Assembly: GCA_951406725.2 (NCBI GenBank)
Contig: OX597832.1
Span: forward strand, 21,080,001 to 21,144,000
Direction: 5' to 3'
Length of the DNA: 64,000 nucleotides
From: Octopus vulgaris
Taxonomy: Eukaryota
In this document: in pieces, positions 5,669-6,037 of the stretch
Layout: the number at the start of each line of letters is the position of its first letter
Position numbering within the stretch: position 1 is the stretch's first letter
Made by a program: the position numbers and the translations under genes
Notes under the pieces: model-generated
Database searches by the model: none
What the model was told of the DNA's origin: nothing
The model's input: only the letters and a program-made list of their open reading frames with translations

Positions 5669-6037
5669 CTAGCAGTATCGCCCGGCGTTGCTCGGGTTTG
5701 TAAGGAAATAACTATAAAGCATTTTTAGATAGTTATAGCCAAAAAATTGGGAAAAAATGATGGTAAATTTTTTTTTTAGTTAAAAAGGTCGATGTGCGTC
5801 CCCTAGACAGTCTGTGGTTTGTGTTTCTGATTCTCGACCCCATGTCGAATTTATCGATTTTTCAGAACTGGGGGAACTTTTCAAAATTTTCGCTGCGTTA
5901 GTTTTGAATTATGACATTGGGCTATGTGTGTGTCAAGTTTCATCAGAATCGGTTGAAAGCCGTGGTCAGGGTGAGGGTACAAGCAAACAGACACACAGAA
6001 ACACACACAGACAAACTGCCGTTTATATATAGAGAGA
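5669..6037 (-). mobile_element. Non-autonomous Helitron (369 bp), sharing both outer ends with the 42629-45317 element
   Basis: Minus strand starts TCTCTCTATATATAAAC and ends CCCGAGCAACGCCGGG hairpin + CGATACTG + CTAG; sits between A and T with no TSD; empty site at 1765/1766. Confidence 0.93.

Follow-up and report, generated by a model that had tools for sequence, protein, structure and literature searches.

We analysed a 64,000-nucleotide window of the Octopus vulgaris genome (contig OX597832.1) together with the whole assembly (2.8 Gb in 227 contigs). The window contains a short non-autonomous Helitron, S, and a longer composite Helitron that carries a complete U2 snRNA sequence; all of the elements described here, S as well as the composite and its parts, lie on the minus strand of the window (Table 1). 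S begins with TC and ends in CTRR, as is canonical for Helitrons, and self-comparison gave no inverted match that would indicate terminal inverted repeats. S and the U2 composite end in an identical terminal hairpin followed by CTRG. The S hairpin lies about 11 nt from the 3' end. Its predicted fold (−4.5 kcal/mol, z −0.8) is not stronger than that of shuffled sequences, and support for the hairpin as a Helitron feature comes from its position and conservation rather than from fold strength. An inverted paralog of the S flanks joins both flanks directly, which places the insertion between A and T without target duplication; among the Helitron insertions examined, A precedes 62 of 67 elements and T follows 66 of 67, and the empty sites in MITEs likewise show insertion between A and T without target duplication. 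Every Helitron feature tested was found in S, which is a true non-autonomous Helitron.

Table 1. Features of the window and related loci (positions of the window unless a locus is named)
Feature	Position	Strand	Remarks
Short non-autonomous Helitron S, 369 bp	5669..6037	-	5' TC, 3' hairpin and CTAG; youngest-looking variant
S, 5' part: family-A 5' module	5778..6037	-	deleted form common to M (5'-UTR direct repeat collapsed)
S, 3' tail, B2 (unit-2) type	5669..5777	-	hairpin at 5681-5696
Inverted paralog of S flanks without element (empty site)	1568..1787	+	target between A and T at 1765/1766, no target duplication
U2-carrying composite Helitron, 2,689 bp	42629..45317	-	two more copies on contig C29
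Deleted unit M: 5' module, PIF1 C-terminal fragment, family-A 3' end	44372..45317	-	high-copy family
Bypassed inner terminus	44372..44402	-	hairpin G>A at 44385 in all 3 composites and 1/25 other M copies
Remnant of a palindromic MITE of 791 bp (bases ~79-433)	44022..44371	-	left arm absent; M had inserted at its A-T site
U2 gene unit with ~400 bp upstream and 310 bp downstream	43113..44021	-	84-93% like non-composite units on C28, C15 and C3
Full-length U2 snRNA sequence, sense to the Helitron	43422..43615	-	RF00004, 185 bits, model positions 1-192 of 192
Inverted piece from the centre of an older MITE-like element	42874..43112	-	
Outer terminus: 5'-truncated B1	42629..42873	-	last 245 bp of a 396-bp non-autonomous Helitron
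B-headed U2 composites	L230, L231, L233, L234, L236, L241, L242, L247, L252, L253, L254; also L235, L245		U2 near position 4000 (first eleven)
Chimeras of A or B with a second autonomous family	L156:870-1770; L173, L180, L214	- (L156)	
Dispersed repeat with ~180-bp units	15698-16318, 26299-26957, 29202-29819, 31217-31579, 40896-41525, 57556-57803		

S sits inside one arm of a 220-bp inverted duplication (arms 1568-1787 and 5647-6233, about 4 kb apart and 97% alike), and no long coding frame was found between these arms. Also in the window are many copies of a dispersed repeat, inside which units of about 180 bp are arrayed in tandem, and two long near-perfect palindromes (59122-59412 and 27976-28121). 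Position +10 after the Helitron end is A in 58 of 67 insertions, which suggests a target preference beyond AT.

S belongs to an abundant family with 2,204 candidates in the genome, and all 40 that were scored are near full length, with identities of 97 to 100%. Complete autonomous relatives were recovered with the Helitron_like_N profile (1,172 candidates, 150 scored, 20 loci fetched): 7 of the 20 fetched loci are complete elements with the 5' end of S and the 3' end of M, mostly 6.14 kb in length (one is 5.6 kb), with open frames of up to 1,744 codons. The element at L216 encodes Helitron_like_N, PIF1, and Pif1_2B domains (PF14214, PF05970, and PF21530), and the family-A autonomous protein would presumably be the one that moves S. 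Beyond its 5' module, the autonomous element has about 375 bp and then a second copy of a short repeat, after which it continues differently; in M the short repeat is collapsed and joined to the PIF1 frame at TCAAC, and some M variants retain the ~375-bp spacer. We had considered the end of the 5' module as a helicase vestige and dropped this idea, as this sequence corresponds, in the autonomous element, to a direct repeat of the 5' UTR. The M family itself is numerous (1,422 candidates; 40 scored, 93 to 100%), and among 30 M loci, 27 end at the inner terminus and the remaining three are the U2 composites. Both ends of the autonomous element align collinearly with M (93 to 94% over the 3' 690 bp), and M is an internal deletion of the 6.14-kb Helitron.

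The junction of S points back to M. Longer S variants read ...AACT CTCAA and then enter the A-run of the B tail; among 40 position-sampled copies (the first 40 of 100 listed on C1) the junction starts with CTC in 9 and with related forms (ATC, CTA, CAA, ATA) in 14, and this start is lost in 17. Because the older S variants keep the CTCAA bases of the M deletion junction, S descends from M, a reading based on this short five-base marker and on collinearity. The reverse order, in which S came first and the helicase piece was a later addition to M and the composite, would agree with the abundance of S and with the ancestral base that it keeps at one 5' site; however, it is very unlikely given the collinearity of M with both autonomous ends and the bases of M's PIF1 junction in S variants. 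Nor did we find the situation that had been named as contradicting the initial annotation, namely an ancestral short form with the long form as a single-locus recombinant.

The composite is present in three full copies, one in the window and two on C29, which have unrelated flanks and differ from one another by 1.2 to 2.4% in substitutions; neither the junction pattern (26 matches, 20 inspected) nor a search with the cargo gave a fourth A-headed composite. Its outer end reads CTGG in the window copy and CTAG in the C29 copies. Both C29 copies, 3.37 kb long, run from the A 5' end to the CTAG of a full B2 element, reaching this B2 copy 680 bp beyond the point where the window copy stops in its truncated B1. 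The C29 pair was also considered as a segmental duplication and this was rejected, as the homology spans the element from its 5' end to the B2 CTAG and then stops. An intact inner end, captured downstream DNA, the end of another Helitron, and copies with unrelated flanks, the features of end bypass, were all found here. Left arms of the MITE adjoin the element 5' end in 13 of the 20 inspected MITE-junction loci; the three composites are without it and 4 loci are uncertain. A donor locus with the left arm in place was thus not among the composite copies, and because all three lack this arm, all are moved products. No other near-identical U2 unit was found, the remaining donor paralogs being about 90% alike. 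These data support the initial annotation in its series from an autonomous Helitron through the internally deleted unit M to capture of U2 by end bypass. Its claim that the 5' and distal 3' ends moved together is borne out by the three full copies with unrelated flanks, but not by S. Public-run contigs over 42600-43400 consist mostly of repeats; the 43112/43113 junction is covered by one contig each in two public runs (43041-43221 and 43047-43229), and no listed contig piece spans the whole stretch.

The three composites share two private changes in M, both outside the 5' module, one of which is a G>A substitution in the terminator hairpin. This change weakens the predicted hairpin from −6.9 to −2.4 kcal/mol (from −5.4 to −2.2 for a shorter stretch). 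In Helraiser the 5' end is essential, the hairpin acts as a terminator, and its loss raises transduction, as described in PMC4778049; by analogy, the G>A change may have caused the read-through into U2. Selection on U2 gave no signal in the three A-headed composites (4 differences in 576 U2 positions versus 27 in 3,541 flank positions; p 1.0). The A-T site of the MITE (window 44371/44372; L162-L181) was hit repeatedly, by at least three Helitron end types, in the 26 junction matches. In other chimeras an A or B 5' end is joined to the PIF1 region and 3' end from a second family of autonomous Helitrons.

Descent of S from this composite had been proposed in the initial annotation, as the 2.69-kb element minus the helicase, inner end, cargo, and a 100-bp repeat. 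The underlying 5' match (5778-6037 against 45056-45317) is real, with 93.5% identity over 262 nt, and the junction sequence of S reads as described there; neither the 5' match (E 1e-112) nor the 3' match (E 1e-23) is due to chance within the window. The 3' match, however, consists of two blocks (S 262-293 with composite 2460-2491, and S 309-367 with 2627-2687), and the 15 nt between them are not part of it. They have no counterpart in the composite outer module and form the motif of the B2 subfamily. In addition, what had been taken for an internal repeat of ~100 bp is an insert with a short direct repeat on either side, and the outer module begins at 42873, which is 15 nt ahead of the boundary first drawn.

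The B families account for this tail. B1 elements are 396 bp long, have a 5' end of their own and form a separate family (full B1 copies make up 27 of the 30 best loci); B1 reads GCTATT-ATATAAGGGAAG-TAAC; B2 has a duplicated unit where B1 has its insert, and its last unit reads GCTATT-TTTTGGCTA-TAAC. Free B2 elements that combine a 5' end of their own with a tail like that of S are found at L154 and L155. The 3' module of S is not of the same subfamily (B1) as the composite outer end, as would be expected of a deletion derivative, and a B2-type tail is not obtainable from a B1 outer module by one deletion. Among 61 A-headed short elements at the fetched loci, 58 carry the B2 unit-2 motif, 1 the unit-1 motif, and none the B1 insert, with 2 unclassified. 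Genome-wide, the exact gapped pattern of the S junction with the B2 motif has 1,348 matches (reversed control, 0), whereas the A junction with a B1 or unit-1 motif has a single one, both counts being lower bounds since the patterns were searched without mismatches. The single match (L270:1253-1649) is a lone A-headed element with a unit-1 tail, the form expected if S had come from the 2.69-kb composite. However, L270 is without a G common to all three composite outer modules, a base that 5 of 27 B1 copies have as well, and L270 is best read as a separate recombinant. The shared 5' module and last 61 nt speak for descent from the 2.69-kb composite, but these 61 nt are common to all B subfamilies, and all three composites carry a derived C at a 5' site (see below). 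This origin of S is largely refuted, is highly improbable in our view, and would hold only if a B2 copy had additionally converted the tail. Ends in common with a multi-copy family do not demonstrate descent from a single three-copy composite.

We instead regard S as an ordinary high-copy Helitron with a family-A 5' end and a B2 3' end, likely derived from M independently of the U2 composite, and give this reading a probability of about 0.8. Most likely, S and the composite each borrowed a B-family end separately. Counting against independence, a full B2 copy terminates both C29 composites, and an arrangement of M and B2 including U2 therefore did exist. S could accordingly be one large deletion from the 3.37-kb composite or its donor locus, with its tail taken from the terminal B2: the tail class fits, the ages overlap, and both C29 copies are bounded elements. 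Against this, the terminal B2 copy of the C29 composites keeps 11 nt that are missing in 40 of 40 sampled S copies, a loss that recurs among free B2 copies. At one 5' site, which is noisy, T is the base in 4/4 autonomous elements and in 32 of 40 S copies (C in 6, 2 unread), whereas the derived C is found in 3/3 composites and 20 of 26 M copies; the composites thus have C where most S keep the ancestral T. The C29 composite is also just one of many possible M-B2 neighbors, and we consider a deletion from it unlikely.

The 5'-module tree, which had been suggested as the deciding check, comprised 86 rows (one truncated M row was omitted), and 62 of its 80 inner branches are unsupported. The AU test rejected a clade of S with the composites (p 0.022), but it also rejected S alone (p 0.017) and S with three random M rows (p 0.005 to 0.033); because control groupings are rejected too, the test says nothing about the composite, and the tree cannot decide whether S came from it. 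Divergence of the 5' module from the group majority is 1.0 to 1.8% in the S groups and 1.7% in M, values biased low where the samples (M and the first S samples) were best hits. Dating the families in this way was dropped, the ranges being overlapping and the best-hit samples biased, and the divergences do not order the families.

On the preferred reading, in which S arose from M, an M copy beside a B2 copy (or a template switch between the two) would have been joined within the A-run of the last unit of B2. The family-A Rep/helicase, needing the 5' end and accepting a foreign hairpin-CTAG end, could then have copied the A-B2 product, and subsequent losses, of CTC and of a 12-nt duplication, probably produced the S variant of the window. 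Helitrons abut head to tail at 5 of 170 ends examined, which makes cargo-free neighbors a common substrate; M directly abutting B2 was not seen among 44 M ends. In a parallel branch, one M copy in the MITE hotspot beside a U2 gene would have gained the hairpin change and likely read through, stopping at the truncated B1 (window copy) or 680 bp further on at B2 (C29 copies).

The mechanisms involved are already known from bat Helitrons. HelibatN541, HelibatN542, and HelibatN580 are described as having acquired new 3' ends by insertion beside 5'-truncated Helitrons, by abutting elements, and by mutation within the terminal 30 bp (Grabundzija et al. 2016, PMC4778049), and all three of these routes appear in the octopus genome. 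Unlike the bat cases as presented in that paper, here a borrowed end founded a family of more than 1,300 copies, bases at the junctions allow the series from autonomous element through M to S to be polarized, and read-through took up an entire U2 gene. In the compound Helitron HelibatN539, one Helitron's 5' end and the 3' end of another mobilize the intervening host DNA, which is explained by the end-bypass model (PMC4224331); its cargo is a protein-gene region, whereas the octopus composites carry an snRNA gene unit and its flanks, a capture that took place twice, with different heads. The construction of short non-autonomous Helitrons from common modules is also described for insect Hel1 (PMC6544945) and the modular AtREP21 (PMC2955051); gains in Hel1 are ascribed there to filler DNA inside fixed ends, whereas S swapped its 3' end. 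A literature search on Helitrons, octopus, and non-autonomous elements gave general papers only. S itself is of limited importance: it offers a clear natural case of 3'-end swapping, a process already known, in which the series leading from the autonomous parent to the short family is, unusually, complete, and it is also a case in which shared ends are no proof of descent from a cargo-bearing element. The neighboring U2 cargo matters more than S itself.

A pattern for the U2 5' end has 67 matches genome-wide, whose surroundings were fetched apart from those of the 14 matches in the C3 cluster; 10 of these 14 had come up within other loci. Sixteen of the 67 are dispersed in Helitron composites (3 A-headed and 13 B-headed, including 2 incomplete), and 7 more sit in a Helitron-bounded array. 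The second type of composite has the order B, U2 unit (antisense), B over about 2.1 kb and contains a different U2 unit; its 11 full dispersed copies begin with a B 5' end, finish with a B CTAG and lie between unrelated flanks. CTTG forms the inner end of 9 copies and CTAG that of 3, and an older locus retains the empty site. Among 11 dispersed copies (9 full and 2 incomplete, two with internal insertions being left out), U2 shows 4 private changes in 178 columns versus 56 in 589 columns of distal flank (p 0.0007). A U2-independent junction pattern adjoins a U2 match in 12 of 12 cases, which makes selection of the copies by U2 likeness an unlikely cause of this conservation; gene conversion may be an alternative source. 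On C23 (L248-L250, 43.30-43.32 Mb), 7 tandem U2 units have B between the units and at both borders, an array that may be a rolling-circle concatemer or a product of unequal crossover.

We tentatively suggest, at somewhat less than even odds, that end-borrowing twice made U2 genes into mobile cassettes, with the inner terminus damaged each time, and that the B-headed copies are working genes under purifying selection. If so, Helitrons would be a route for spliceosomal RNA genes out of their clusters, perhaps building the tandem cluster on C23, and, if the composite U2 copies are expressed, they would shape the number and location of snRNA genes. Helitron capture of snRNA genes did not appear in the titles and abstract openings found, a search outside which most subscription literature lies. 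By eye, TAATTAAAT near −90 and ATCAGT near −58 recur in both U2 unit types, whose upstream DNA otherwise differs (window 43616-43710, minus strand; L202-L209), and these sequences form a candidate promoter motif of U2 units.
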